Sequence record: OR062945.1 | DNA length: 64,000 nucleotides | Direction: 5' to 3' (one strand) | DNA from: Escherichia phage 308Ecol101PP | Shown here: one piece after another, positions 5,972 to 62,789 of the stretch | Layout: each line of letters starts with the position of its first letter | How positions within the stretch are numbered: the first letter of the stretch is position 1 | The notes under the pieces: model-generated | The model's database searches: none | The model's input: only the letters and a program-made list of their open reading frames with translations | Told to the model about the DNA's origin: nothing | Program-made: the position numbers and the translations under genes

Positions 5972-6000
5972 GTTTACATCCTCAATAGATGTGTTAAGAT
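5972..6000 (+). promoter_or_regulatory. candidate early promoter (GTTTAC ... TAAGAT)
   Basis: -35-like GTTTAC and -10-like TAAGAT with 17-nt spacing. Confidence 0.35.
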
Positions 6001-6028
6001 TAAACCATCTACTATAGAGGAAAATAAA

Positions 6029-6211
6029 ATGACAATTGAAGATAAAGAAATTAAGGTCGACCAGTACTATTCTGTCAATGGTAATGCAGTACAGATAACC
6101 AGAGTTTCAAGCCTGGATGTTTGGTACCGTTCAATCAAATATCCAGAAATTGGTGAAATGCTTTGTGACCGTGGTATCTTCTGTTCAATTGCAAAGGAAA
6201 TTAAGCCATGA
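6029..6211 (+). CDS. hypothetical protein
   Basis: Track ORF 5909..6211; ATG at 6029 preceded by AGGAAAATAAA. Confidence 0.35.
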   Translation: MTIEDKEIKVDQYYSVNGNAVQITRVSSLDVWYRSIKYPEIGEMLCDRGIFCSIAKEIKP

Positions 6212-7099: not shown

Positions 7100-7128
7100 T
7101 GTACAACGATAGGAAGACGTGTTATTAT
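7100..7128 (+). promoter_or_regulatory. candidate early promoter (TGTACA ... TATTAT) inside a 10-bp inverted repeat
   Basis: 17-nt spacing; arms GATAGGAAGA (7108-7117) and TCTTCCTATC (7129-7138) flank the -10. Confidence 0.45.
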
Positions 7129-7159
7129 CTTCCTATCGTCTTAAAATGAGGAAAATATC

Positions 7160-7399: not shown

Positions 7400-7428
7400 T
7401 GCACAAACTCTTGAGAGCAGAGTATAAT
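7399..7428 (+). promoter_or_regulatory. candidate promoter (ATGCAC ... TATAAT) with 6-bp inverted repeat; element recurs at 52681
   Basis: TATAAT at 7423-7428 flanked by GAGAGC/GCTCTC; a near-identical 33-nt element lies at 52684-52716. Confidence 0.45.
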
Positions 7429-7467
7429 GCTCTCTCATTGGATAATAAAATAACCGAGGAAAATAAT

Positions 7468-8297: not shown

Positions 8298-8341
8298 TGC
8301 TTTAAGATAGGTCTCTAAATATTATGATATAATAGACCTAT
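8298..8341 (+). promoter_or_regulatory. promoter region upstream of gene 55 (TGCTTTA box; TATAAT at 8328-8333; inverted repeat ATAGGTCT/AGACCTAT)
   Basis: The -10 hexamer sits in the loop of an 8-bp inverted repeat; the MotA-box-like TGCTTTA is too far from this -10 to be its partner. Confidence 0.4.
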
Positions 8342-9838: not shown

Positions 9839-9862
9839 GAACTCTTCGGAGTTCCTTTTTTG
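9838..9862 (+). terminator. rho-independent terminator (UUCG tetraloop)
   Basis: GGAACTC-TTCG-GAGTTCC followed by TTTTTTG. Confidence 0.6.
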
Positions 9863-9907
9863 CTTTATAAACGGATGATAGAATGAATTAACTAATGAGG
9901 AAATAAT

Positions 9908-10927
9908 ATGAAAATTTTGCACTTAGGCGACTTCCATATCGGAGTCAAACAAGATGACCCATGGGTTCAAGATATTCAACGTGATGGTATTCGTCAAGCA
10001 ATTGAATACTCTAAGAAACACGGGATTAAAACTTGGATTCAGTACGGTGATTGGTTTGACGTCCGTAAAGCAATAACACATCGTACAATGGAATTCAATC
10101 GTGAAATCGTTGATATGATTTCTAAAGCAGGCATTCACGTTCATGTCACGATAGGAAACCACGACATGGCGTTTAAGAATACAATAACACCTAACACTGT
10201 TTCTGAATTGTTAACTCAATTTGAAAACTTTACTATTTATGAGCATCCAACTACTGTAGATTTTGACGGATGTCTGATTGATATCGTTCCATGGATGTGT
10301 GAAGAAAATACGGGTGAAATCTTAGAGCACATCAAGACTTCTTCTGCTGCGTATTGTGTTGGGCACTGGGAACTGAATGGCTTTTATTTCTATAAAGGAA
10401 TGAAGTCTCATGGGCTTGAACCTGATTTCTTAAAGACCTATAAACAAGTCTGGTCCGGCCACTTCCACACAATCTCTGAAGCTGCTAACGTCAAATATAT
10501 TGGGACACCATGGACCCTTACTGCAGGTGATGAGAACGACCCGCGCGGATTCTGGGTATTTGACACTGATGTTGAACGTATGGAATTTATTCCTAATGAA
10601 ACAACATGGCATCGACGAATCACTTATCCATTTAAAGGCAAAATCAATTATTCTGATTATACTAATCTAGCCGTACGTGTTATAGTATCAGAAATTGATT
10701 CAGAGTTGACTAAGTTTGAATCTGAACTTGAAAAAGTAGTTCACTCTCTTCGTATGGTTTCTAAAGTTGATAACAGTGTTGAATCTGATGACGACCAGGA
10801 AATCGAGATTAAATCACTTCAAGATATCATTAAAGAATATATTGACGCGATTCCAGATATCTCAGACGAAGACAGAGAAGCGCTGGTCAAATATTCCAAC
10901 GAACTTTATATTGAGGCAACACAATGA
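9908..10927 (+). CDS. 47: recombination nuclease subunit gp47 (Mre11-like)
   Basis: 339 aa, phosphoesterase motifs (DFHIG, GNHD, GHWE); matches T4 gp47 from memory. Confidence 0.9.
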   Translation: MKILHLGDFHIGVKQDDPWVQDIQRDGIRQAIEYSKKHGIKTWIQYGDWFDVRKAITHRTMEFNREIVDMISKAGIHVHVTIGNHDMAFKNTITPNTVSELLTQFENFTIYEHPTTVDFDGCLIDIVPWMCEENTGEILEHIKTSSAAYCVGHWELNGFYFYKGMKSHGLEPDFLKTYKQVWSGHFHTISEAANVKYIGTPWTLTAGDENDPRGFWVFDTDVERMEFIPNETTWHRRITYPFKGKINYSDYTNLAVRVIVSEIDSELTKFESELEKVVHSLRMVSKVDNSVESDDDQEIEIKSLQDIIKEYIDAIPDISDEDREALVKYSNELYIEATQ

Positions 10928-16548: not shown

Positions 16549-19260
16549 ATGAAAGAATTTTACTTAACGGTTGAACAGATTGGTGATTCAATTTTTGAAC
16601 GTTACATCGATTCTAACGGCCGTGAACGTACTCGTGAAGTAGAATATAAACCATCACTGTTTGCTCATTGTCCAGAAAGTCAGGCTACGAAATATTTCGA
16701 TATCTACGGTAAGCCGTGTACTCGTAAGTTGTTCGCCAATATGCGTGATGCCTCCCAATGGATTAAACGCATGGAAGATATCGGACTTGAAGCACTTGGC
16801 ATGGATGATTTCAAATTGGCGTATTTGTCTGACACTTATAACTATGAAATCAAATACGACCATACAAAAATTCGTGTGGCTAACTTCGACATCGAAGTAA
16901 CATCTCCGGACGGGTTCCCTGAGCCGTCACAAGCAAAACATCCGATTGATGCTATCACTCATTATGACTCAATTGATGACAGGTTTTATGTATTTGACCT
17001 TTTGAATTCTCCATATGGTAATGTAGAAGAATGGTCTATTGAAATCGCTGCTAAGCTTCAAGAACAAGGCGGTGATGAAGTTCCATCTGAAATTATCGAT
17101 AAAATCATTTATATGCCGTTCGATAACGAAAAAGAATTGTTGATGGAATATCTCAACTTCTGGCAACAGAAAACTCCTGTCATTTTGACTGGATGGAACG
17201 TTGAGTCATTTGATATTCCATATGTGTATAACCGAATCAAGAATATTTTTGGCGAATCTACTGCGAAACGTTTATCACCACATCGTAAAACTCGTGTTAA
17301 AGTTATCGAAAACATGTATGGTTCTCGTGAAATCATTACATTGTTCGGTATCTCTGTTCTTGATTACATTGACCTTTACAAAAAATTCTCTTTTACCAAT
17401 CAACCATCATATTCTCTGGATTACATTTCAGAATTTGAATTGAACGTTGGTAAACTGAAATATGACGGCCCTATTTCTAAGCTTCGTGAAAGCAATCACC
17501 AACGATATATTTCTTATAACATTATCGACGTGTATCGTGTATTGCAAATTGATGCTAAACGTCAGTTCATCAACTTGAGTTTGGACATGGGTTATTATGC
17601 TAAGATACAGATTCAATCTGTGTTTAGCCCAATTAAAACATGGGATGCTATTATTTTTAATAGCCTTAAAGAGCAGAACAAGGTGATTCCACAAGGTCGT
17701 TCTCACCCGGTTCAACCTTATCCCGGCGCTTTTGTTAAGGAACCTATTCCAAATCGATACAAATATGTAATGAGTTTCGACCTTACATCTCTGTATCCAA
17801 GTATTATTCGCCAAGTGAATATTAGCCCAGAAACAATAGCAGGAACGTTTAAAGTAGCTCCACTACATGATTATATTAACGCAATCGCTGAACGTCCTTC
17901 TGATGTGTACAGTTGTTCTCCTAACGGCATGATGTATTATAAAGACCGTGACGGTGTTGTTCCAACTGAAATCACTAAAGTCTTTAATCAACGTAAAGAA
18001 CATAAAGGTTACATGCTTGCAGCTCAACGTAATGGCGAAATAATTAAAGAGGCATTGCATAATCCTAATCTTTCTGTTGACGAACCATTAGATGTTGATT
18101 ATCGTTTCGACTTCAGTGATGAGATTAAAGAAAAGATTAAAAAGTTGTCTGCTAAATCTCTTAATGAAATGTTGTTTAGAGCTCAACGTACTGAAGTTGC
18201 AGGTATGACTGCCCAAATTAACCGTAAATTGCTTATCAACTCACTTTATGGTGCACTTGGCAACGTTTGGTTCCGTTATTATGATTTGCGTAATGCTACT
18301 GCAATCACAACATTCGGGCAAATGGCTTTACAGTGGATTGAACGTAAAGTTAATGAATATCTGAATGAAGTTTGTGGCACAGAAGGTGAAGCTTTCGTTC
18401 TTTATGGTGATACAGACTCTATTTACGTATCTGCTGATAAAATTATCGATAAGGTTGGTGAATCTAAATTCCGTGATACCAACCATTGGGTAGACTTCTT
18501 AGATAAGTTTGCACGTGAACGTATGGAACCAGCTATTGATAGAGGTTTCCGTGAAATGTGTGAATACATGAACAATAAACAACACTTAATGTTCATGGAC
18601 CGAGAAGCTATCGCTGGGCCTCCACTCGGTTCTAAAGGTATTGGTGGATTCTGGACTGGTAAGAAACGTTATGCATTAAACGTGTGGGATATGGAAGGAA
18701 CCAGATACGCTGAGCCTAAACTCAAAATCATGGGTCTAGAGACTCAGAAATCTTCGACTCCTAAAGCAGTACAGAAAGCTCTTAAAGAATGTATTCGTCG
18801 TATGCTTCAAGAAGGTGAAGAATCATTACAAGAATATTTTAAAGAGTTTGAAAAAGAATTCCGTCAATTGAATTATATTAGCATCGCGTCGGTATCTTCT
18901 GCGAATAACATTGCTAAATATGATGTAGGTGGATTCCCTGGTCCTAAATGCCCGTTCCATATTCGTGGAATTCTGACGTATAACCGGGCTATCAAAGGTA
19001 ATATCGATGCACCGCAAGTTGTAGAAGGTGAAAAAGTATATGTTCTGCCTTTACGTGAAGGAAACCCATTCGGTGATAAATGTATCGCATGGCCTTCTGG
19101 TACTGAAATCACAGATTTAATTAAAGACGATGTACTTCATTGGATGGACTACACTGTTCTCCTTGAGAAGACATTTATTAAACCACTTGAAGGATTCACA
19201 TCAGCAGCGAAACTCGATTACGAGAAGAAAGCATCTCTGTTCGATATGTTCGATTTTTGA
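16549..19260 (+). CDS. 43: DNA polymerase gp43 (family B, with 3'-5' exonuclease)
   Basis: 903 aa; exonuclease motif FDIEV, polymerase motifs DLTSLYPSI, KLLINSLYG and YGDTDS; N-terminus matches my memory of RB69 gp43. Confidence 0.95.
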   Translation: MKEFYLTVEQIGDSIFERYIDSNGRERTREVEYKPSLFAHCPESQATKYFDIYGKPCTRKLFANMRDASQWIKRMEDIGLEALGMDDFKLAYLSDTYNYEIKYDHTKIRVANFDIEVTSPDGFPEPSQAKHPIDAITHYDSIDDRFYVFDLLNSPYGNVEEWSIEIAAKLQEQGGDEVPSEIIDKIIYMPFDNEKELLMEYLNFWQQKTPVILTGWNVESFDIPYVYNRIKNIFGESTAKRLSPHRKTRVKVIENMYGSREIITLFGISVLDYIDLYKKFSFTNQPSYSLDYISEFELNVGKLKYDGPISKLRESNHQRYISYNIIDVYRVLQIDAKRQFINLSLDMGYYAKIQIQSVFSPIKTWDAIIFNSLKEQNKVIPQGRSHPVQPYPGAFVKEPIPNRYKYVMSFDLTSLYPSIIRQVNISPETIAGTFKVAPLHDYINAIAERPSDVYSCSPNGMMYYKDRDGVVPTEITKVFNQRKEHKGYMLAAQRNGEIIKEALHNPNLSVDEPLDVDYRFDFSDEIKEKIKKLSAKSLNEMLFRAQRTEVAGMTAQINRKLLINSLYGALGNVWFRYYDLRNATAITTFGQMALQWIERKVNEYLNEVCGTEGEAFVLYGDTDSIYVSADKIIDKVGESKFRDTNHWVDFLDKFARERMEPAIDRGFREMCEYMNNKQHLMFMDREAIAGPPLGSKGIGGFWTGKKRYALNVWDMEGTRYAEPKLKIMGLETQKSSTPKAVQKALKECIRRMLQEGEESLQEYFKEFEKEFRQLNYISIASVSSANNIAKYDVGGFPGPKCPFHIRGILTYNRAIKGNIDAPQVVEGEKVYVLPLREGNPFGDKCIAWPSGTEITDLIKDDVLHWMDYTVLLEKTFIKPLEGFTSAAKLDYEKKASLFDMFDF

Positions 19261-19300
19261 TATAATGACATGGACGGTAAACTAATTAAATGAGAGAAAT

Positions 19301-19936
19301 ATGAAAACTACTCCTATTACTATCGCTATTGACGCAATCATAAAACAAGCTTCTTCTTTGGCCGCTATGGCCAAAGTAATTAGTCAAAACCCTGCTCGTT
19401 ATAATGCTATTCTAGAAACTCTTCGACGCCCAGGACTTAGTAATTATGAAAGCCGAGTAATTATTACAGGTGTTGGTAAGAATGCTAATATTGCAACTAA
19501 AGCTTCTGAGACATTTGCTTCACTTGGTATCCCGAGTATGTACTTGAACACTGGGCATTATTCTCACGGTGATGCAGGATTCATTGCGCCTAATGATGTG
19601 TTGATTCATATTAGTCGTTCTGGTAAAACTGAAGAAATGATAGGCGTGGCTAAGCATCTTAAAATGATTCGTCCGAACGTCAAACAGATTCTGTTGCATT
19701 GTAACCCGGACATTCCACAAGAATACGAAGCTCTTTTTGATTATACGTTCTGTACAGGCATCGCAGTAGAGGTTGATGAGAATTCTCTGGCTCCGACCAT
19801 GTCCACTACATTGTTGTTAGCGCTTATCGATACGTTTGCTATCAACCTTTCGTCTGAACGTGGATTTACCTCTAATGACTTCCTTAAGTTCCACCCTGGT
19901 GGTGCACTAGGTGCCATGTTACGAGGCGAACAATGA
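19301..19936 (+). CDS. SIS-domain sugar-phosphate isomerase (KdsD/GutQ-like or GmhA-like, no CBS domains)
   Basis: 211 aa; SIS-like pattern GVGKNANIA...SRSGKTEE and C-terminal HPGGALG, characteristic of arabinose-5-phosphate isomerase SIS domains. Confidence 0.7.
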   Translation: MKTTPITIAIDAIIKQASSLAAMAKVISQNPARYNAILETLRRPGLSNYESRVIITGVGKNANIATKASETFASLGIPSMYLNTGHYSHGDAGFIAPNDVLIHISRSGKTEEMIGVAKHLKMIRPNVKQILLHCNPDIPQEYEALFDYTFCTGIAVEVDENSLAPTMSTTLLLALIDTFAINLSSERGFTSNDFLKFHPGGALGAMLRGEQ

Positions 19937-20076
19937 AAGCAATAACAATAGGACTTTTACTATTGATGCTTGTCATGACTATCTACTGGAGCTTAACGGC
20001 TCCAGTAATGATTCCGACTCTTATAATCGGATGGATTATGATTGGACTACAAGCAAAGTATGAATGCTTTAACTAG
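19933..20076 (+). CDS. hypothetical small membrane protein (47 aa, not in ORF track)
   Basis: Hand-translated ATG 19933 (ATGA overlap) to TAG 20074-20076; almost entirely hydrophobic. Confidence 0.35.
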   Translation: MKAITIGLLLLMLVMTIYWSLTAPVMIPTLIIGWIMIGLQAKYECFN

Positions 20077-20117
20077 AATAGTGTACAATACTCCTACTTA
20101 CCAATGAGGACCACAAC

Positions 20118-21803
20118 ATGAAAAAAGCTGTTATTCTTGGTGCTGGACTGGCAACTCGTTTGTATCCAATAACGCATCATATTCCTAAGGTGCTTGTTAA
20201 CTATAAACAAGACACTATTCTGAGCAATTTGTATACAATTTATTCTGACCTTGGCGCAGATGAAATTATTGTAGTAGTTCATTCAAAATTTGCTGAAACT
20301 GTTCGAGCTTATTGTGAGCAAGAAGGGTTCAATGTGACTATTCGTACAGTTGATGAAGCGTATGGTTCTGCTTATGCTCTTGCTAAATTGCACAAAGATT
20401 TAGACGGCCATAATGTAATTGTTAACTGGTGTGATATTATTCCTGATTTTGGTTCGTGGTCTTGGAATGTTAACGCAATCTATGTTAAGGGTGACGAATG
20501 TCGATATAATTTCGACGGTGAAAATATCACTAATGTAGGTTCAACAGGTGGTAATGTTGTAGGAATTTATCAGTTCAAAGACTGGGAATTCTATATGGGT
20601 TCTACTGATGAGGAAATTCATGAATACTGCAAAGGACGTGATTTCGTAGAATTCCTTTACGGCAGCGCATTCAATAAATCAGAGCTTATGAATCTAATTG
20701 ATTTAGGTGATATGCCTAAACTTGAAAAAGCTCATGAAGTTCGTGAACTTAATCGTAGTTTTAATGCAGTTGAAATTGGTGAAGAAACTGTAACTAAATT
20801 CGCATTAACCGAACAGGGCCGAGCTCTTCAGAAAGATGAGATTTCATGGTATCTTAAAGTGAAATCAGATTCAGTTCCTCAGTTAGTTTCTGTTAATGAA
20901 AATAACTTTGAAATGGAACGCATTAAAGGTAAGCCGGCATTTGAATATATTAAATCCAAATCAAGTCTTGCTCGTCCACAAATTGTTGATGCAATTTTAG
21001 ATGCACTGAAATTCAGCACAGACACTTATTTTGTAAGTCCTGAAACTGTTCGTCGTGATTTCACTAAAGAATTCTATACTAAAGTTATTGATCGTTGTGA
21101 AAGTATTCAACCATTGATTGATTCATTTGGTAAAATCACACATGTGAACTACACTAAGATTGGGCGTCTGAAGCCAATGTTGAAACAAGCTTTAGAACAC
21201 CTTATTCGTTATCATAACCGTTCTCAGGGACAGTACTCTGTTATTCATGGTGACCCGAACTTCAGTAATACTATGATTACTGATAATGGTGAAGTCAAGT
21301 TTATCGACCCTCGTGGATATTTTGGTGAAACCAAGATTTATGGGCCAAAATTGTATGATGAAGCTAAAGTGCTTTACGCTGTTTCAGGTTATGATGAATT
21401 CAACGCTAATCCGACTTGGGGACAGTTTACTATTGATGAAACAACTTGTAATGTGACTATTAACATCAATCCGTTAGTTTACAAATATGGAAAGATGAGT
21501 TCGTTTAACGAGTATCATCATTTGGCAGTGGCAATTATCTGGATTGCATTAGGTGGTTATTTCAAGAATAATCCACTTAAAGCGGTAGCCGCATATTATA
21601 AAGGTATGGAACTTCTGACTAAGCAATTACGTAATATGGGCCGTGTACTTCAGGACGGCACTATTAGTTATGATGTAGCAGAACCTGTAACGGCTACTCT
21701 GATTACAAAAAATCCTGGTAAATGGGTACTAACTGATAAAGAAACTGGTGTTTCTTATCGTCCAATCGGTGGCGATATCACTCATCAATGGGAACGAATC
21801 TAA
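20118..21803 (+). CDS. bifunctional sugar-1-phosphate nucleotidyltransferase / kinase-fold protein
   Basis: N-terminus ILGAGLATRLYPIT resembles the G-x-G-T-R motif of sugar nucleotidyltransferases; C-terminal HGDPNFSNTMI...KFIDPRG resembles the catalytic loop of APH/choline-kinase-fold kinases. Confidence 0.7.
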   Translation: MKKAVILGAGLATRLYPITHHIPKVLVNYKQDTILSNLYTIYSDLGADEIIVVVHSKFAETVRAYCEQEGFNVTIRTVDEAYGSAYALAKLHKDLDGHNVIVNWCDIIPDFGSWSWNVNAIYVKGDECRYNFDGENITNVGSTGGNVVGIYQFKDWEFYMGSTDEEIHEYCKGRDFVEFLYGSAFNKSELMNLIDLGDMPKLEKAHEVRELNRSFNAVEIGEETVTKFALTEQGRALQKDEISWYLKVKSDSVPQLVSVNENNFEMERIKGKPAFEYIKSKSSLARPQIVDAILDALKFSTDTYFVSPETVRRDFTKEFYTKVIDRCESIQPLIDSFGKITHVNYTKIGRLKPMLKQALEHLIRYHNRSQGQYSVIHGDPNFSNTMITDNGEVKFIDPRGYFGETKIYGPKLYDEAKVLYAVSGYDEFNANPTWGQFTIDETTCNVTININPLVYKYGKMSSFNEYHHLAVAIIWIALGGYFKNNPLKAVAAYYKGMELLTKQLRNMGRVLQDGTISYDVAEPVTATLITKNPGKWVLTDKETGVSYRPIGGDITHQWERI

Positions 21804-22189
21804 TGCACCGTGTAAAAAACATGCTTAATCTTTGTTTTGATGTCGATGATTGTATAACAGAGTGGAATAACAATCGTGATTACGTGAACTTCAAACCAGA
21901 CGTCGAAATGGTGTCTGCCATTAATGCCCTGTATGATGCAGGGCATACCATAACGCTTTACACTGCTCGCGGTATGAAGTCAGTAGGTCCTGGTCGTATA
22001 GCAATTGACATTCTCCCAAGTCTGATTCAGAACTTGGCAAACATTGGATTGAAGTACCATAATTTGCTAACACATAAACCAGTATATGATTGGATTATCG
22101 ACGACAAAGCTATGCGTCCTGACGAATTCAAAGCTCTTATGAATAAAGGCGAATTCGAAACATTTAAATCATATAAACCGAATCTATAA
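21803..22189 (+). CDS. HAD-superfamily phosphatase
   Basis: 128 aa with HAD motif I (FDVDDCIT); TAATG overlap with upstream gene; track start 21788. Confidence 0.6.
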   Translation: MHRVKNMLNLCFDVDDCITEWNNNRDYVNFKPDVEMVSAINALYDAGHTITLYTARGMKSVGPGRIAIDILPSLIQNLANIGLKYHNLLTHKPVYDWIIDDKAMRPDEFKALMNKGEFETFKSYKPNL

Positions 22190-28913: not shown

Positions 28914-28919
28914 TAAAAA

Positions 28920-28938
28920 GGAGACTTCGGTCTCCTTT
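28920..28938 (+). terminator. hairpin with UUCG tetraloop after gene 41
   Basis: GGAGAC-TTCG-GTCTCC followed by TTTCGGGG. Confidence 0.45.
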
Positions 28939-28942
28939 CGGG

Positions 28943-28972
28943 GTTTACATCTTCCTCTAGGCATGATACGAT
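28943..28972 (+). promoter_or_regulatory. candidate early promoter (GTTTAC ... TACGAT)
   Basis: 18-nt spacing. Confidence 0.4.
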
Positions 28973-29001
28973 GTACTTACACCAACCAAGAGGAAAACAT
29001 T

Positions 29002-29376
29002 ATGAATATGTCTCAAGCAATTTTTACTGCAATCACCGAAAACACAACTGTTGAAGTAGTTTCTCCACTGGCAACCTACGTTATTCTTGCTCCTAAAACT
29101 ATTGTATCTCGTATGGAAAACATGGGCAAACGTATCGTACAAATTGTTGGAGCCGGAAATCAAAAACTTGATTATCTGCGAACCATCAAAGCTTATGAAC
29201 ATTTCCAACTCGAAAAAGGTTCTCCTATCCAGGTAGAACTCGTAAATGGTGATATCGTTCGAGCAATGTTCCATCATTTCTATGCATTGAATGACCCATC
29301 TAAAGCAGTTCGTTTAATTGCATACGACGCAAACCAAACCGAAATCAACGCAGATGTATCTAAATTACGTTTTTAA
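29002..29376 (+). CDS. hypothetical protein
   Basis: Track ORF 28963..29376 starts in the promoter; ATG 29002 has AGAGGAAAA upstream. Confidence 0.45.
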   Translation: MNMSQAIFTAITENTTVEVVSPLATYVILAPKTIVSRMENMGKRIVQIVGAGNQKLDYLRTIKAYEHFQLEKGSPIQVELVNGDIVRAMFHHFYALNDPSKAVRLIAYDANQTEINADVSKLRF

Positions 29377-29405
29377 GTTTACTTCTCCAGTAGTTGTGTT
29401 ATTAT
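29377..29405 (+). promoter_or_regulatory. early promoter (GTTTAC, 17 nt, TATTAT) inside a 12-bp inverted repeat
   Basis: Arms CTCCAGTAGTTG (29385-29396) and CAACTACTGGAG (29414-29425); the downstream arm contains the Shine-Dalgarno sequence of the next gene. Confidence 0.5.
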
Positions 29406-29431
29406 AGACCTATCAACTACTGGAGAACAAA

Positions 29432-29749
29432 ATGAAAACCATCGATTGTAAAGCAGAATTTAAGATTTTTTATCACGGTTCAAGTAGTTCAGCTAACATC
29501 GAAAACATGCTTTGTCCTCCTGAGGAAACAGGAGTTCTGTCTGAAACCGGACGTAAGAAAAACTTGGATCGTGTATTCTTTACTGAAGATATCGGTTTAG
29601 CAAAGATTTATGCAGGACGAGCAGCACGCTCTTATGGAGGTGAACCACGTCTCTATCGAGTAATTTCTCCGGTAGACGTAGTTCAAATGAATGATACTAA
29701 AGGTGCTACAGTTTATCACGCTGAATGGGCATTTTGTGAGGAAATATGA
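29432..29749 (+). CDS. hypothetical protein
   Basis: 105-aa ORF. Confidence 0.45.
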   Translation: MKTIDCKAEFKIFYHGSSSSANIENMLCPPEETGVLSETGRKKNLDRVFFTEDIGLAKIYAGRAARSYGGEPRLYRVISPVDVVQMNDTKGATVYHAEWAFCEEI

Positions 29750-29937
29750 GCAAATTAACTAAAGTTACTTTTATAGGTTGGTTTAAAAGCGGTGAGATGT
29801 TCACTAAAGATATCATGTTATCAGGTGATCGCGAAGAAATCGAGTGGGTTACGGTACAACTTGCTGAAGTGAACAACGCATTAGTTAAAGCATTTGTTAA
29901 TGACGAGAAAGTTTTTGAAGCTGATTTCAGAGGATAA
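29746..29937 (+). CDS. dmd: Dmd-like antitoxin (inhibitor of host RnlA/LsoA RNase toxins)
   Basis: 63 aa with pattern FIGWFKSGEMFTK...LAEVNNALVKAF, which resembles T4 Dmd as I remember it; sits between 41 and 61. Confidence 0.65.
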   Translation: MSKLTKVTFIGWFKSGEMFTKDIMLSGDREEIEWVTVQLAEVNNALVKAFVNDEKVFEADFRG

Positions 29938-29938
29938 T

Positions 29939-30151
29939 ATGTATTCAACTGTGTTTAAACCATCAACATACGAATTTGCATCAACTACACAATGGAAAGC
30001 TCTTATTCTGGAAGGATGGGAACTAATGATGGACTGTGAAGCATCTGAAAAGTTTCCGCACGGCAAAGTGGACTTCGTTAAATTTGCTGTACGTCCGACT
30101 AAACGACAGATTCGTCAAGAAAAACGCAAATTTCGCAAAAGTTTAAAATAA
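29939..30151 (+). CDS. small protein with C-terminal RPTKRQIRQEKRKFRK tail
   Basis: Track ORF 29894..30151; ATG 29939 follows the dmd stop; third member of the RPTKRQ-tail family. Confidence 0.4.
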   Translation: MYSTVFKPSTYEFASTTQWKALILEGWELMMDCEASEKFPHGKVDFVKFAVRPTKRQIRQEKRKFRKSLK

Positions 30152-30894: not shown

Positions 30895-30924
30895 GTTTAC
30901 ATTATAGATGGACTATAGTATAGT
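30895..30924 (+). promoter_or_regulatory. candidate early promoter (GTTTAC ... TATAGT) with palindromic -10 region
   Basis: 18-nt spacing; GGACTATAGTATAGTAGTCC. Confidence 0.4.
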
Positions 30925-30953
30925 AGTCCTATCAAATCAACTAAGGAGTTAAA

Positions 30954-36431: not shown

Positions 36432-36592
36432 AAGAGAAATTGAAAGAGAAATTCTTACTAGAAATCAAGGAAAAAGACTTTGAGACATGGTATCGAATGG
36501 TGAAAGGGCTGACATTGCTTTTTAAAGCATCGTTATTCATGTTAGAACAACCTGGTCCTGATGGGCCTTTAGTAGGAAAGCTTAAAAAGTAG
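36428..36592 (+). CDS. hypothetical protein (54 aa, not in ORF track)
   Basis: Hand-translated ATG 36428 (ATGA overlap) to TAG 36590-36592. Confidence 0.3.
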   Translation: MKEKLKEKFLLEIKEKDFETWYRMVKGLTLLFKASLFMLEQPGPDGPLVGKLKK

Positions 36593-36620
36593 TTTACATT
36601 CCCTCCTCTCGTGTTATGAT
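36592..36620 (+). promoter_or_regulatory. early promoter (GTTTAC, 17 nt, TATGAT) upstream of modA
   Basis: Hexamers read directly. Confidence 0.45.
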
Positions 36621-36647
36621 AGGCTTATCTTTAAATGGAGGTCTATC

Positions 36648-37229
36648 ATGACATGTCAATCTGAACTTCAAGAACGTGAATACCTAACAAATCTGATTGA
36701 TAGCAAATTCACCCGCCAAGAACAAAACATTCTCTGGGCTTGCACCGATTCTAAGGAAGACCCAGATTTCCACTATGAATTAGACCATCTTGTTCGTAAG
36801 CATATGACTTCTACAGTACCAGTAGAACTCTACCGTGGTGTAACTCCAGAAGAAGTAGAACGTCTTTCCCTTCTTTCTGTGGGATGCCATTGGTCTCCTG
36901 GACGAGTAACATCGTTCACAACTGATTTCAGTACAGCTCGTCAATTCTCCGGGAGATGGGAATATCAGACGTACACTATTCTTAGTCTCAGGAATGCTCC
37001 GTTCATTTTTGATTACTACCAAAACATGGTTAACATTGTACTCGCCGGAAAGAACCCTAAGCATGTTATGGAAGAAACTCGTATCGATGTCCTAGATATG
37101 ATTGAATCTGAGCAAGAGTACATGGTCTCAGGTATCTCTAGATTTGAGATTGTGGAAATTGAAGACTTAGAATATGACCCTTTATCTCGGTTATACAAAA
37201 TCATTCATTTGAAAATGTTGAATTTTTAG
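36648..37229 (+). CDS. modA: ADP-ribosyltransferase ModA-like
   Basis: 193 aa with ART R-S-ExE pattern (LYRGV ... SFTTDFSTA ... ESEQEYM); T4 modA and modB are adjacent as here. Confidence 0.7.
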   Translation: MTCQSELQEREYLTNLIDSKFTRQEQNILWACTDSKEDPDFHYELDHLVRKHMTSTVPVELYRGVTPEEVERLSLLSVGCHWSPGRVTSFTTDFSTARQFSGRWEYQTYTILSLRNAPFIFDYYQNMVNIVLAGKNPKHVMEETRIDVLDMIESEQEYMVSGISRFEIVEIEDLEYDPLSRLYKIIHLKMLNF

Positions 37230-41111: not shown

Positions 41112-41141
41112 GTTTACAACCAAGGACGGTTGGAGTATAAT
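41112..41141 (+). promoter_or_regulatory. early promoter (GTTTAC, 18 nt, TATAAT)
   Basis: Hexamers read directly. Confidence 0.5.
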
Positions 41142-42266: not shown

Positions 42267-42686
42267 ATGAATATTGTAAATCTCTCTACAGGTGATTACG
42301 TATATGTATCTGTTGCTTCTCGCTCTAAAGTTGCCGGGAAGTTGGTTGAAGTTCTTTCTGTGAGTGATCCGGTTTTTGGTCGTAACCAAGTTAAAGTTCG
42401 TGACGCTGATGGCAACATTGGTTACGTTAAAAGCCAATTCATTGAACCGGAAGAAAAAGCGTTCAAATGGAAACTGTGCAGGTCTGTTTTAGTTGTAAAA
42501 GACCATGAATTTACTATTGCTGCTGCAACTGACGGGTCTCCATGGTCAACGAATCAAGTTGCTGGTTTTATTTCGGACCAATGGGTAGAAGATGGTGTTA
42601 AGCTTTATAACATCGTTTTCGCTGGACAGTTCATGGTAGTTCCTGAGTTCCAAATCAAAAAATATTGTCCAGCATCTTTTGCATAA
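42267..42686 (+). CDS. dexA.1-family paralog C
   Basis: 139 aa; ASRSKVAGKLVEV ... GFISDQWVEDGVKLYNIVFAGQFMVV. Confidence 0.5.
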   Translation: MNIVNLSTGDYVYVSVASRSKVAGKLVEVLSVSDPVFGRNQVKVRDADGNIGYVKSQFIEPEEKAFKWKLCRSVLVVKDHEFTIAAATDGSPWSTNQVAGFISDQWVEDGVKLYNIVFAGQFMVVPEFQIKKYCPASFA

Positions 42687-42690
42687 AGTT

Positions 42691-42719
42691 GTTTACTTCT
42701 CCTCTGGATTTGGTATTAT
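42691..42719 (+). promoter_or_regulatory. early promoter (GTTTAC, 17 nt, TATTAT) inside a 10-bp inverted repeat
   Basis: Arms TCTCCTCTGG (42698-42707) and CCAGAGGAGA (42731-42740); the downstream arm contains the Shine-Dalgarno sequence. Confidence 0.5.
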
Positions 42720-42745
42720 ATCCATATCAACCAGAGGAGAATAAT

Positions 42746-43270
42746 ATGTTAGTTTACCGCGTAGAACGTAGTTTTTGTACTCAACGTGAATCATTACCAG
42801 GAATTGCTATCGAAGATGGTAAAGCCGTCAGAATTTGGGAAACCTCTTGGAATAAAGAACCTCGCTCGCCATACGGCTGGTCGGGCACCGACAACTCTGA
42901 AGAAACATGGGAGTTCCTTGATAAGCATGGAATACTCTCAGGTAACTTCTACCATCATGGCGACAACTATAATGTCCCTAATCGTCCTACAGTAAATGAA
43001 GACAAACTCCTTGAACAAAATATCTTAAGATACTATAGAATTGATCACACATTTGAATTGAGTGAAGATTGGGCTCAAGGGTTCTATTTTGGATTTGAAA
43101 GTGTTGACGCGGTTTATGCATGGTTTGATGACCAGGTGGATGTTGAACTCTTGAAAGCTAAAGGATACTACATCGCGGTCTATGAAGCACCTGATTTCAT
43201 CCTCGGAAGTTGTCAATTAATGTTTAGACGTTCATTGGCAGAACAAGTTGATTTTATTTTGCTAAAATGA
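42746..43270 (+). CDS. hypothetical protein
   Basis: Track ORF 42665..43270 starts upstream of the promoter; ATG 42746 follows the Shine-Dalgarno sequence. Confidence 0.45.
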   Translation: MLVYRVERSFCTQRESLPGIAIEDGKAVRIWETSWNKEPRSPYGWSGTDNSEETWEFLDKHGILSGNFYHHGDNYNVPNRPTVNEDKLLEQNILRYYRIDHTFELSEDWAQGFYFGFESVDAVYAWFDDQVDVELLKAKGYYIAVYEAPDFILGSCQLMFRRSLAEQVDFILLK

Positions 43271-44149: not shown

Positions 44150-44572
44150 ATGGCTTTTAAAGGTTTTGAAGTTGGTAAGAAATATCGTATTATCAAAGGA
44201 CAGGAAGATAATTTCTTGAGAATTCTTAATACGACTGGTAAACGTCTTAACACTACTCTGCATACAGTTTTATTATCAAGAGATTTTATCGTAGAAGAGA
44301 TGATTGGTTACGGTGTTTCAATGATTGCCGCTGAAACCGATGGACCTGGACGTACAATCATTAGTATGCAAGGTGATATTCTGATTTATGGTGCAGAATT
44401 TAAATTCTTTGAAGAAGTTCCGGAACCAGATACAACTGTCGATTTCAAAAAAGGCTCTATAGAATTTGTTGATGGTTCGGTGATCGTATCAGGCGATGTG
44501 GTCATTACAGTTAAAAGTGAACAAGGGCGTTTGGCTGCAATTGATGCACTTCAGAAAATTAAATTTAAATAA
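44150..44572 (+). CDS. hypothetical protein
   Basis: 140-aa ORF followed by a strong terminator. Confidence 0.5.
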   Translation: MAFKGFEVGKKYRIIKGQEDNFLRILNTTGKRLNTTLHTVLLSRDFIVEEMIGYGVSMIAAETDGPGRTIISMQGDILIYGAEFKFFEEVPEPDTTVDFKKGSIEFVDGSVIVSGDVVITVKSEQGRLAAIDALQKIKFK

Positions 44573-44590
44573 GGGCTTCGGCCCTTTTTG
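44573..44590 (+). terminator. rho-independent terminator (UUCG tetraloop)
   Basis: GGGC-TTCG-GCCC followed by T5. Confidence 0.6.
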
Positions 44591-44635
44591 CTTTAGATTT
44601 CGGATGATAGAATACCTTCATAACGAGGAGACAAC

Positions 44636-46495: not shown

Positions 46496-47596
46496 ATGAA
46501 AGTTATGTTTATCCCATCTCGCGCAGTCCCATTTAATCCTGACCGTGTACAAGGTGGTCTTGAAGCAGTACATTTAAATGTGTTGAAATATCTTGTGTCC
46601 ATCGGTGCTGATATTGATTATATCGGCTTTGATAATGACACGTTTGGTGACTGGAAAGTTACACACCATCCTGTTGGTCATCTGACTAAATTTAGTCTAG
46701 GTATGAGTTATACTATGGCTCGTAAGATTGTTGAACTAGCCGGCATCCATGAATACGATTTTGTTGTTACTATGGAACCGACTAAACTAACCGTTCAGGC
46801 AATTAAAGACGCAGGTCTCTCTAAAGTTCATAAGAATTTTATGGCAACACCATTTGAACCGGTATCTCGTGGCATTGTTCAAATTTGGGACCAGACTATT
46901 CAAATTCATAAGAATGGTGGTAAGAGTTATGCTCCTACTAAAGCCTTCCGTGAATTTGAACGCAAATATTGTTATATGACTTCAGGTCTGACTGACAAAA
47001 TTGATTATGATTATTGGCGAGCAAATCCGTTGTTTGAAGCCGAAGATTATCCGGTTATTTGTTTGAATGAGAAACCTGAAGTTCTTCCGGCGACTGATCT
47101 GATTATTAGTGCACAACGTTATGACACTAAAATGCGTCGTACTGATGTTGCTCTTGAAGCGATTAAAGCACTAGGCGAAAATGGTGTAGGATACTGTCCA
47201 AGCAAATGGGCACCACCAGCTAAATATCCTGTTATTATTGATGCTCCACACAGTGAAATCATGGAACGTCTTAAAACAGCTAAAGCGCTTATTAATACGT
47301 GTCCTGACACAGGTACGGTAGAGAATAGTTCTATTGAAGCCATCTCTAAAGGTGTCCCTGTAATCCAGTTAGTTTTTAAGGATTATCCTCATGCGACATT
47401 CGAATACGACCCAGATACTGTGCGTGTAGAAATTGATTCCTCTACTCCTAAGAAAGAAGTAGTTGCGCTTTACACAAAAGCTGTATTAGAATTCACTGAC
47501 ACATACGAAGCTCGAGTTAAACGTGCTGAAGCAGTATGGAAGAAGTATAACCGAGATGCAGTTGTTGCGATGTGGGATAAAATCTTCACAGCGTAA
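46496..47596 (+). CDS. GT-B fold glycosyltransferase (GT4-like), candidate DNA glycosyltransferase
   Basis: 366 aa; C-terminal E-x7-E-type motif VENSSIEAISKGVPVIQ typical of GT4 retaining glycosyltransferases; N-terminus MKVMFIPSRAVPFNPDRVQGG. Confidence 0.6.
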   Translation: MKVMFIPSRAVPFNPDRVQGGLEAVHLNVLKYLVSIGADIDYIGFDNDTFGDWKVTHHPVGHLTKFSLGMSYTMARKIVELAGIHEYDFVVTMEPTKLTVQAIKDAGLSKVHKNFMATPFEPVSRGIVQIWDQTIQIHKNGGKSYAPTKAFREFERKYCYMTSGLTDKIDYDYWRANPLFEAEDYPVICLNEKPEVLPATDLIISAQRYDTKMRRTDVALEAIKALGENGVGYCPSKWAPPAKYPVIIDAPHSEIMERLKTAKALINTCPDTGTVENSSIEAISKGVPVIQLVFKDYPHATFEYDPDTVRVEIDSSTPKKEVVALYTKAVLEFTDTYEARVKRAEAVWKKYNRDAVVAMWDKIFTA

Positions 47597-47612
47597 ATCC
47601 TGAATCGCCTGA

Positions 47613-47663
47613 GGCACTATTACACATAAGATGATAAATTATATGGTCTTTAGTAATAGTGCC
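47613..47663 (+). repeat. 11-bp inverted repeat with 29-nt loop between the glycosyltransferase gene and rIIA.1
   Basis: GGCACTATTAC (47613-47623) and GTAATAGTGCC (47653-47663). Confidence 0.5.
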
Positions 47664-47688
47664 CTAGGAATCTACTGAAGAGAATATT

Positions 47689-47889
47689 ATGAGAACATAT
47701 AACGTGGACTTGGAACTTTTTGATAAAGCAGTGCTCCGGGAATTCCGGCTTATCCAAAGATTTTTTGATATCGAGTCAGCAGAGTCCTTTAAAGAACGCT
47801 TTAAAGAAATTCGATATAAAATACAAACCGATACAGCTACTAAAGAAGAACTTCTTGAAGTAGCAGAAATTTTTAAACGTAACTTGTGA
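47689..47889 (+). CDS. hypothetical protein (rIIA.1 locus)
   Basis: 66-aa ORF immediately upstream of rIIA. Confidence 0.45.
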   Translation: MRTYNVDLELFDKAVLREFRLIQRFFDIESAESFKERFKEIRYKIQTDTATKEELLEVAEIFKRNL

Positions 47890-51907: not shown

Positions 51908-51937
51908 GTTTACAACTAAGTAGGACTATGATATAGT
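51908..51937 (+). promoter_or_regulatory. candidate early promoter (GTTTAC ... TATAGT) with palindromic -10 region
   Basis: 18-nt spacing; TAGGACTATGATATAGTAGTCCTA. Confidence 0.45.
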
Positions 51938-51963
51938 AGTCCTATCTAAAAGAGGATAACATC

Positions 51964-52419: not shown

Positions 52420-52449
52420 GTTTACAACAAGGTAGGATTATGGTATAGT
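52420..52449 (+). promoter_or_regulatory. candidate early promoter (GTTTAC ... TATAGT)
   Basis: 18-nt spacing; GTAGGA/TCCTAC palindrome. Confidence 0.45.
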
Positions 52450-52477
52450 AGTCCTACTGAAACATGAGGAACACAAA

Positions 52478-52680: not shown

Positions 52681-52716
52681 TTGTACAAACTCTTGAGAGC
52701 AGAGTATAATGCTCTC
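52681..52716 (+). promoter_or_regulatory. candidate promoter (TTGTAC, 18 nt, TATAAT) with GAGAGC/GCTCTC inverted repeat; copy of the 7399 element
   Basis: 33 nt near-identical to 7402-7434. Confidence 0.45.
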
Positions 52717-62102: not shown

Positions 62103-62765
62103 TTAATAATAGCCGAAATCTTGAACAGAATCTTTAATTACAATCTGGTCGAAACGAGGAACATGATTAGCCTCAGACGCCGGATTCTGTGAGAAAAAGT
62201 TTGGTGCTGTTAAAGTACCAATCATGGTATCGCCAGAACGCAATACACGGGAATTTGTGTTATCCGTAACAATATTTATTCGTCCATCAACATAATCTTT
62301 TCGTGTGAGATCATTTGCTGCAACCGGAGCAGTAGCGTTAGAACGGACAGGACCAATTGCATAAAAACCGCCCTTAGTGCTGATATCACCGGTACGAGCG
62401 TTAATAACAACAGTTCGGTCTGCTGAACCTTGTGATGACTTAAAACCAATACCATTCCACGAAACGATGTCAATATTTGCCATATCAAAAGTAGCTGCAT
62501 CACCGTTACCTGGATAAACACCACACTGTTGACTACTACCTACAGTAGGAACATGTACGCCTCCATTAAATCGAACAGTTGCAGCGTAAGTACCACCATT
62601 AGCTTTAGAAACGAAATCGTTATCAGCAGCTTGTGGTTTATTATATTCTGAATAGAGTTTAAACGTTTTATACAGGACGTCATCACCTGCTGGCATTAAA
62701 GGGAAATTACCTTGATGCCATATAACGGCACCGCCAGTTGTACTACCAGCTTTTAAATCGGCCAT
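62103..62765 (-). CDS. 36: long tail fibre distal connector gp36
   Basis: 220 aa (T4 gp36 221 aa), directly upstream of gene 37. Confidence 0.8.
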
Positions 62766-62789
62766 AGTTGTCTCCTTATATGTATACCA

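Follow-up and report, generated by a model that had tools for sequence, protein, structure and literature searches.

In Escherichia phage 308Ecol101PP (record OR062945.1; the window analyzed here is a stretch of 64,000 nt), two T4-type early promoters carry in the spacer between the -35 and -10 hexamers a sequence perfectly complementary to the region of the Shine-Dalgarno sequence (SD) of the next open reading frame (ORF). We consider it probable, at roughly two chances in three, that the downstream ORF is translated only when its RNA was started at its own early promoter, as RNAs reading through from upstream would contain both complementary arms and hide the SD in a hairpin. An initial annotation of the window had proposed such coupling of translation to promoter choice, and it is supported computationally by the anatomy of the elements, hairpin energetics and folding, covariation of the arms, conservation in orthologues, and the link between long stems and missing upstream terminators. 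The two main elements, further referred to as site 1 and site 2, are composed as follows.

29377-29382, + strand: site 1, GTTTAC as the -35 hexamer of an early promoter of the T4 type, corresponding to RB69 Pe:20537 (Nolan et al., 2006)
29383-29396, + strand: site 1, 5' arm TTCTCCAGTAGTTG, the first 14 nt of the 17-nt promoter spacer, containing the anti-SD CTCC
29400-29405, + strand: site 1, -10 hexamer TATTAT with TG upstream (extended -10), in the loop
29414-29427, + strand: site 1, 3' arm CAACTACTGGAGAA, with the SD GGAG at 29422-29425, followed by the ATG at 29432
29432-29749, + strand: RB69ORF040c homologue, the putatively SD-masked gene at site 1, 105 aa, phrog_2110, function not assigned
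42691-42696, + strand: site 2, -35 hexamer GTTTAC, 4 nt past the stop of a MotB-like gene, corresponding to RB69 Pe:7443 (Nolan et al., 2006)
42697-42707, + strand: site 2, 5' arm TTCTCCTCTGG, within the promoter spacer
42714-42719, + strand: site 2, -10 hexamer TATTAT, in the loop; predicted start at ~42726
42731-42741, + strand: site 2, 3' arm CCAGAGGAGAA, carrying the SD, followed by the ATG at 42746
42746-43270, + strand: MotB.2 homologue, the putatively SD-masked gene at site 2, 174 aa, 34% identity to T4 MotB.2 (E 9e-17)

The repeat is perfect over 14 bp at site 1 (alternatively, 19 nt at 89%) and over 11 bp at site 2. The initial annotation had placed whole promoters in the loops of 10-12-bp perfect repeats; the repeats are real and exceed the length given there, but the -35 hexamer lies upstream of them, the 5' arm is the spacer itself, and the loop holds no more of the promoter than the -10 hexamer and the predicted start. 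It was right that the downstream arm holds the SD of the next gene, and also that transcripts from the internal promoter lack the upstream arm, as both predicted starts, ~29412 (inferred from T4 early-promoter geometry) and ~42726, follow the 5' arm. Both promoters match the T4 early consensus and are called by the promoter scan with an extended -10; at site 1, the -35 hexamer abuts the stop codon (29374-29376) of the RB69ORF041c homologue. A third, weaker element, absent from the initial annotation, precedes the latter gene.

28943-29001, + strand: site 3, with GTTTAC at 28943-28948, -10 hexamer TACGAT at 28967-28972 and ATG at 29002 (RB69ORF041c homologue)
28952-28961 and 28986-28995, + strand: site 3 arms TTCCTCTaGG and CCaAGAGGAA, 7+2 bp, imperfect

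Its promoter, likewise fitting the T4 early consensus and called by the scan with an extended -10, corresponds to Pe:20971; all three are predicted in RB69 (Pe:20537, Pe:20971 and Pe:7443; Nolan et al., 2006), the published coordinates being matched after correction for a 234-nt offset. Taken singly, site 3 is not significant (hairpin energy -10 kcal/mol, z -1.7; a 7-bp match is seen in 7% of cross pairs), and it is retained because its layout is identical and its context conserved.

Chance origin of the repeats is ruled out by shuffling and by cross-pairing of promoters with the translation starts of other genes. The window contains four perfect repeats of 11 bp or more with a loop of at most 45 nt, compared to a mean of ~1 in 20 shuffles; all four are intergenic between predicted genes, and three of them overlap a -10 hexamer. 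Matched with its own translation start, the spacer has a longest complement of 14 at site 1, 11 at site 2, and 7 at site 3, while the maximum among 272 mismatched pairings, made with 17 candidate early promoters, is 9. The hairpin energy is -21.7 kcal/mol at site 1 (z -5.5) and -22.5 kcal/mol at site 2 (z -5.0), with none of 200 shuffles as good. Moreover, the genes of sites 1 and 2 rank first and second in SD pairing probability among 115 gene starts (0.99 and 0.97; the median is 0.53, and gene 49, considered below, has 0.83).

To compare the two kinds of transcripts, the read-through RNA was folded from -100 to +35 around the ATG, and the promoter-started RNA, from a start 5-9 nt past the -10 hexamer. 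The SD pairing probabilities are the following.

RB69ORF040c homologue (site 1): 0.99 in read-through RNA, 0.33 in promoter-started RNA
MotB.2 homologue (site 2): 1.00 in read-through RNA, 0.66 in promoter-started RNA
RB69ORF041c homologue (site 3): 0.79 in read-through RNA, 0.46 in promoter-started RNA
Gene 49: 0.98 in read-through RNA, 0.29 in promoter-started RNA

The earlier suggestion that read-through RNA hides the ribosome-binding site thus agrees with folding, with 0.99-1.00 at sites 1 and 2 against 0.33-0.66 for promoter-started RNA; the residual structure in the promoter-started RNAs amounts to -4 to -6 kcal/mol for all four genes and to -4 to -5 kcal/mol for sites 1 and 2.

In the mechanism that we propose, the 17-nt spacer of a sigma-70-type T4 early promoter would act through its complementarity to the SD region ~20-30 nt downstream. 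Read-through RNA would come at site 1 from the promoter of the ORF041c homologue, 430 nt upstream, and from any RNA passing the gene-41 terminator, and at site 2, from the motB-region promoters at 41112 and 41669. Containing both arms, it would fold into an 11-14-bp hairpin of ~-22 kcal/mol, so that GGAG would be buried and 30S initiation on the ORF blocked; the untranslated RNA would be additionally open to Rho and decay. RNA from the embedded promoter would begin in the loop 2-5 nt ahead of the 3' arm and expose the SD, since the 5' arm is missing from this transcript. The ORF would be confined to the immediate-early burst, and its dosage insulated from the strong promoters stacked upstream. 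The assumptions behind this scheme are initiation at the predicted starts, the presence of read-through RNA, and an actual block of its translation. The upstream ORFs stop 0-4 nt ahead of the -35 hexamers, co-directional promoters are predicted upstream, and the terminator scan finds no terminator-like sites on the + strand between these upstream promoters and sites 1 and 2. Opening of the hairpin by a ribosome ending on the upstream ORF, that is, translational coupling, is unlikely. From the end of the stop codon to the 5' arm there are 6 nt at site 1 and 10 nt at site 2, more than the ~5 nt reportedly unwound by a terminating ribosome, which therefore should not open the helix.

The closest known systems are T4 late genes. 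For e, soc, 49, and I-TevI, as well as mobE and segB, a hairpin hides the ribosome-binding site in the long RNA, and an internal late promoter produces a translatable RNA (PMC3014915); the T4 gene 49 precedent was correctly cited in the initial annotation. As in T4 e, soc, 49, and I-TevI and in Aeh1 mobE, the SD of the window sites lies in the 3' arm of the hairpin, and the 5' arm is missing from the promoter-started transcript; the long RNAs coming from upstream are likewise predicted to be untranslatable. Gene 49 of the window is a direct orthologue of the T4 case, and the proposal that it shows the same layout with a late promoter holds true.

2138-2176, + strand: gene 49 leader, late promoter TATAAATA at 2138-2145, ATG at 2174
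2145-2153 and 2160-2168, + strand: gene 49 arms ACCCTTA(TC) and (GG)TAAGGGT, the latter with the SD inside, 9 bp counting G-U pairs

These arms are identical between the window and T4 gene 49. Among these elements, only gene 49 has an embedded TATAAATA promoter, whereas sites 1-3 carry early promoters of the type GTTTAC-N17/18-TAnnnT. Hence, unlike the known members with their gp55 late promoters, the window sites use a sigma-70 early promoter with the 5' arm in the -35/-10 spacer, and the logic is reversed: expression would be earliest and from the own promoter, and not delayed until late. No early-promoter example is listed in the 2010 T4 review (PMC3014915).

The masking of the motB.2 SD is conserved. 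We collected orthologues by tblastn against phage records, and in folding the SD is masked in all four genera, with arm sequences differing.

Mosigvirus: arms UUCUCCUCUGG / CCAGAGGAGAA, -22.5 kcal/mol
Tequatrovirus: arms CUUCCUCGGU.AGUUGUGGU / ACCAUAGCU.ACUGAGGA, -23.7 kcal/mol
Dhakavirus: arms UUCUCCUCAUG / CAUGAGGAGAA, -18.8 kcal/mol
Kanagawavirus PEi26: arms AUGACCUCCU / AGGAGGUCAU, -16.2 kcal/mol

SD pairing is 0.78-1.00 in three of the four leaders (-18.8 to -23.7 kcal/mol) and weaker, 0.55, in Edwardsiella phage PEi26, where the 5' arm is shifted onto the -10 hexamer and discriminator (240-303 of the locus). The predicted start is located after or inside the 5' arm in all four genera; in PEi26 it falls inside the arm, and therefore the promoter-started RNA would still lose it. 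SD masking predicts just such a combination, a mobile 5' arm and a 3' arm held over the SD; neither a terminator nor a DNA-level role requires it.

The site 1 cassette has a counterpart in T4 as well: BLAST identifies a homologous 60-nt element, 84% identical, between ipII and denV, with arms TCTCCTGTAG/CTACAGGAGA that differ from site 1 by one compensatory A>T / T>A pair. Scanning of the T4 early region revealed this layout at denV (10 bp), 30.8 (8 bp), regB (7 bp perfect, ~17 bp with wobbles), nrdC.9, and motB.2; on folding, read-through RNA has the SD of each of these five genes paired at 0.97-1.00, and pairing in promoter-started RNA is far lower. Of these, denV is situated downstream of ipIII and ipII, genes with heavy late transcription. 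At regB (KJ477684, ~62730-62786) the spacer pairs with the own SD (UUUUCCUCUUGACUGUGG / CUAUCAGUUAAGAGGAGAA; 1.00 paired in read-through RNA), that is, the gene of the nuclease cutting GGAG of early SDs itself stands behind an SD-pairing early promoter.

For a wider sample, the IMG/VR database was scanned with a pattern anchored only on GTTTAC-N-TCTCC, TAnnnT and GGAGA, yielding 94 distinct cassettes, mostly on ~170 kb contigs. At least three additional base pairs inward of the TCTCC/GGAGA anchors are present in 57% of 77 cassettes with the ATG 2-9 nt past GGAGA, compared to 8.6% for permuted arm pairings (maximum 20.8% in 2000 permutations), and 26 different paired extensions are observed. 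We then excised 70 arm pairs, joined them by an artificial AAAA linker to hold the column register, and counted pairs. Paired cells constitute 80.4%, compared to 65.8% with shuffled and 44-47% with slid partners; double changes are found in 153 cells (77.7 +/- 5.8 expected) and at all seven variable pairs; and the covariation score is 0.314, compared to 0.109 +/- 0.011 in shuffles (0 of 500 reach it) and 0.056-0.086 for slid partners, these figures being inflated by kinship among the cassettes, which is retained in the slid controls.

The covarying arms also decide the fate of one alternative, an operator. A palindrome with the -10 hexamer at its center is a typical feature of operators, and a dimeric DNA-binding repressor might be imagined over the promoter. 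Still, the arms vary by site and by phage, sharing only the SD/anti-SD core among the 26 paired extensions, and the spacing between them ranges from 17 to 23 nt and more. As both sequence and spacing differ, no single protein could read them, and we regard the operator as ruled out for practical purposes.

In their layout, the window elements are cassettes of the PeSL type, described in RB49/phi1, T4/PST, and KVP40/nt-1, where the stems were interpreted as terminators or attenuators and as recombination sites (Arbiol et al., 2010; Comeau et al., 2014). The common features are an AT-rich upstream region, an early promoter with a stem-loop between or over the -35 and -10 hexamers, and then the SD and ATG; repetition in hyperplastic regions before small ORFs; and indels or replacements that end in the cassette. 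The T4 homologue of site 1 at ipII/denV belongs to an IP locus, and PeSL-like elements were seen in T-even IP loci by Repoila et al. (1994), as stated in Arbiol et al. (2010; PMC2839356). The text of the latter paper differs from our reading in that the words "ribosome" and "translation" do not occur in it, and the T4/PST stems (AGNA-loop-TCNT, just upstream of the promoter) match the hairpins flanking the -10 hexamer, not the SD-covering ones.

Hence the hairpin may be the attenuator or terminator half of a PeSL cassette, stopping or pausing polymerase arriving from upstream and insulating transcription units, with the SD overlap incidental to a short leader. We find this rather unlikely as the sole explanation, although the RB49 PeSL stem-loop cut expression of downstream lacZ as strongly as rrnB T1 (Arbiol et al., 2010; PMC2839356), and many hairpins flanking the -10 hexamer exclude the SD. 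Like intrinsic terminators, the window elements are stable intergenic hairpins downstream of a stop codon; unlike them, they have no U-tract, their loops of 17-23 nt contain the -10 hexamer, and the SD of the following gene makes up the 3' arm. We reject the intrinsic terminator, since no T-run follows either hairpin (GGAGAACAAAATG, GGAGAATAATATG) and the scan calls true terminators nearby but neither of these two. A pure terminator also has no need for the motB.2 arrangement, in which the 5' arm moves and the 3' arm stays on the SD. Moreover, attenuation and SD masking are compatible, as a translation block would itself cause Rho-dependent polarity.

The terminator context bears on several readings at once. 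Cassettes with a terminator-like hairpin and a T-run within 85 nt upstream have a mean stem of 6.5 bp, with at least 9 bp in 2 of 12 (one of these two rests on a doubtful terminator call), whereas cassettes without an upstream terminator have a mean stem of 10.0 bp, with at least 9 bp in 45 of 64. For these anchored cassettes the Mann-Whitney test gives p = 1.9e-4 and the Fisher test, p = 7.5e-4, both optimistic because the IMG/VR cassettes are not phylogenetically independent. Long stems are absent from the ORF040c orthologues situated directly behind the gene-41 terminator, namely in LF82-7, LQ5, Yersinia TG1, Pectobacterium PM2, and MN01. Among 47 strict early promoters of T4 and the window, 20 have stems of at least 7 bp, and an upstream terminator is found for one of these 20 and for seven of the 27 without a stem; the stems cover the SD in seven cases, end before the start in seven, and are intermediate in six. 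Long stems thus are retained where read-through is expected, and a role intrinsic to promoter DNA is disfavored by this dependence of stem length on upstream terminators.

In such a DNA-level alternative, the repeats would be recombination modules or by-products of promoter-cassette shuffling (the PeSL mini-circle model) devoid of RNA function. Indeed, homology to other genera starts at the promoter (query position 140-142) or within it (165-168). Phage TH58 (360-470 of the locus) has lost ORF041c, and the site 3 promoter with its arms is fused to the ORF040c coding sequence at the SD (GAGGA|GAACAAAATG), through a crossover that deleted the stretch between the site 3 and site 1 cassettes; LF82-7 (350-440 of the locus) has a chimeric promoter in which the site 1 3' arm is kept, the spacer is unrelated and the stem is lost; and several IMG/VR cassettes join a denV-type 5' arm to an ORF040c-type 3' arm. 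Mismatches in the stems also show no wobble bias. On the other hand, recombination wants direct homology between cassettes rather than complementarity inside one, crossovers in the loop break the pairing and yet 57% of the cassettes retain extended covarying arms, and the dependence of stem length on upstream terminators is an RNA-level context. We therefore judge a purely DNA-level role improbable.

One more possibility concerns RNA fate, with the hairpin shielding GGAG from RegB in long transcripts or providing a protective 3' hairpin to the processed upstream mRNA. The SD regions of early genes are cut by RegB at GGAG (PMC3014915), the 3' arm has GGAG(A) as its conserved core, and the layout is present at the promoter of T4 regB itself. 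However, a paired SD stops ribosomes with or without RegB, so that such protection would be at most an added layer, and as the main function it seems very improbable. Under SD masking, the exposed GGAG of the short early RNAs could, speculatively, be cut fast by RegB, sharpening the early pulse.

Several observations, in addition to the kinship of the IMG/VR cassettes, weigh against SD masking as the function of these hairpins. The early promoters at all sites are consensus predictions. Internal mismatches of the stems have no sense-strand wobble bias (15 G:T and 11 A:C), and therefore this comparison does not separate selection at the RNA level from that at the DNA level. Recombinant cassettes with broken stems occur and evidently are viable. 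Many early promoters, both in the window and in T4, have hairpins at the -10 hexamer that stay clear of the SD, so that promoter-overlapping hairpins must have some function unrelated to SD masking. Finally, the association with upstream terminators is predicted equally by an attenuator role.

If SD masking is correct, a sizeable minority of T4-type early genes (~7 of the 47 strict promoters) would be expressed from their own promoter only, denV, regB, and motB.2 being among the T4 cases, and a mirror-image early class would stand beside the textbook late-gene examples. Some of the stem-loops long noted at early promoters of T-even phages would thereby acquire a function, and the cassettes could serve as compact parts for phage engineering, combining a promoter and a transcript-origin filter in ~55 bp. 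We tentatively extend the reading further, as a possibility that we hold doubtful at present: the early regions of Tevenvirinae may use SD-covering promoter hairpins as a general translation code of the "own-promoter-only" kind, in which a shuffled accessory gene would arrive already insulated because both arms travel with the promoter-plus-ORF cassette. PeSL shuffling and the evolution of hyperplastic regions would then be tied to a built-in expression filter, which could also explain in part why mRNA and protein timing are reported to be decoupled in T4. SD masking at early promoters as such would strike a T4 specialist as plausible rather than startling; it is general and quantifiable. Stem-loops, hairpins, and inverted repeats are not mentioned by Nolan et al. 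(2006); literature searches for denV/dexA hairpin papers and T4 start-site maps gave nothing relevant, and a T4 omics paper does not mention denV. The apparent addition to the accessible literature (Miller 2003, Repoila 1994, and Liebig & Ruger 1989 are outside it) is a covarying, orthologue-conserved subclass in which the 3' arm is the SD.

The window, judged by its sequence, is from an RB69-like T4-type phage: the 3-kb piece around site 1 has 97.9-98.3% identity to RB69 and related phages (Mosigvirus). This piece aligns to the reverse complement of RB69 18901-21900, and hence the + strand is the direction of early transcription. Site 1 is situated between the RB69ORF041c homologue (stop at 29376) and the RB69ORF040c homologue (ATG at 29432), the latter followed, in order, by dmd, 61.4, imm.1, imm, and sp. 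At 29746-29749, the stop of the ORF040c homologue overlaps the start of dmd (29746), and 61.4, which we take to be the homologue of T4 tifA, begins 1 nt past dmd (window 29937-29939). Because of this overlap and adjacency, the translation filter on the ORF040c homologue may reach dmd, encoding the antitoxin Dmd, and 61.4 via translational coupling. The features adjacent to sites 2 and 3 are the following.

42267-42686, + strand: MotB-like gene, upstream of site 2
28917-28938, + strand: terminator-like hairpin AAAGGAGAC-TTCG-GTCTCCTTT, after gene 41 and directly upstream of site 3

The latter has a counterpart in RB69, a TransTerm terminator at 20965-20980 (Nolan et al., 2006).

At least 12 promoter-overlapping hairpins are present within the window, and two more of them resemble sites 1-3 in a weaker form.

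5972-6031, + strand: imperfect case, TCCTC...GAGGA plus ATAGATG/CATCTA, before a 60-aa ORF; -12 kcal/mol, z -2.7
36592-36650, + strand: case with another geometry, 5' arm over the -10 hexamer and discriminator (ATGATAGGCT), 3' arm from the SD through the AUG (AGGTCTATCATG); -13.1 kcal/mol, z -2.4

The hairpin at 36592-36650 and that of PEi26 represent an alternative geometry with the same effect, the start being inside the 5' arm as in the late-promoter cases.

A second class of hairpins is observed at the early promoters at 7106-7139, 7413-7434, 8307-8341, 30907-30933, 51920-51945, 52431-52458, and 52695-52716. Here the 5' arm is in the spacer, and the 3' arm is a conserved stretch after the -10 hexamer, TAG(A/T)CCTATC or TGCTCTC, which lies ahead of the predicted start and does not reach the SD; the energies range from -9 to -16.5 kcal/mol, with z from -2.2 to -4.6. 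As both arms precede the start, the whole hairpin exists only in read-through RNA. Four members of this class had been listed in the initial annotation as related repeats; those at 7106-7139, 8307-8341, 7413-7434, and 52695-52716 do flank the -10 hexamer, but do not include the SD, and with a 3' arm upstream of the start they cannot hide it. The class is frequent in T4 too (dmd, ipII, ipIII, 57977, 73919, and others), agrees with the AGNA-loop-TCNT stems described for T4/PST by Comeau et al. (2014), and has a role that SD masking does not account for. Two of its members are contained in identical copies of a 32-nt promoter and hairpin segment, ACAAACTCTTGAGAGCAGAGTATAATGCTCTC, at 7403-7434 and 52685-52716, 45 kb apart; they precede two different small ORFs and are a candidate substrate for cassette-mediated recombination.

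The remaining related repeat, 47613-47663, is a real 11-bp repeat, but no promoter was found in its loop. With extensions, it forms a hairpin at 47605-47670 (-27.6 kcal/mol, z -4.4) between a 366-aa ORF (stop at 47596) and a 66-aa ORF (ATG at 47689), presumably rIIA.1 by its position; no T-run follows this hairpin, and the SD is outside the repeat. Finally, terminator hairpins at 44571-44615 and ~9850-9905 have MotA-box matches (TTTGCTTTA) and a TAGAAT -10 hexamer right behind them, and resemble units of a terminator and a middle promoter placed ahead of gene 39 and of the gene at 9908, respectively.

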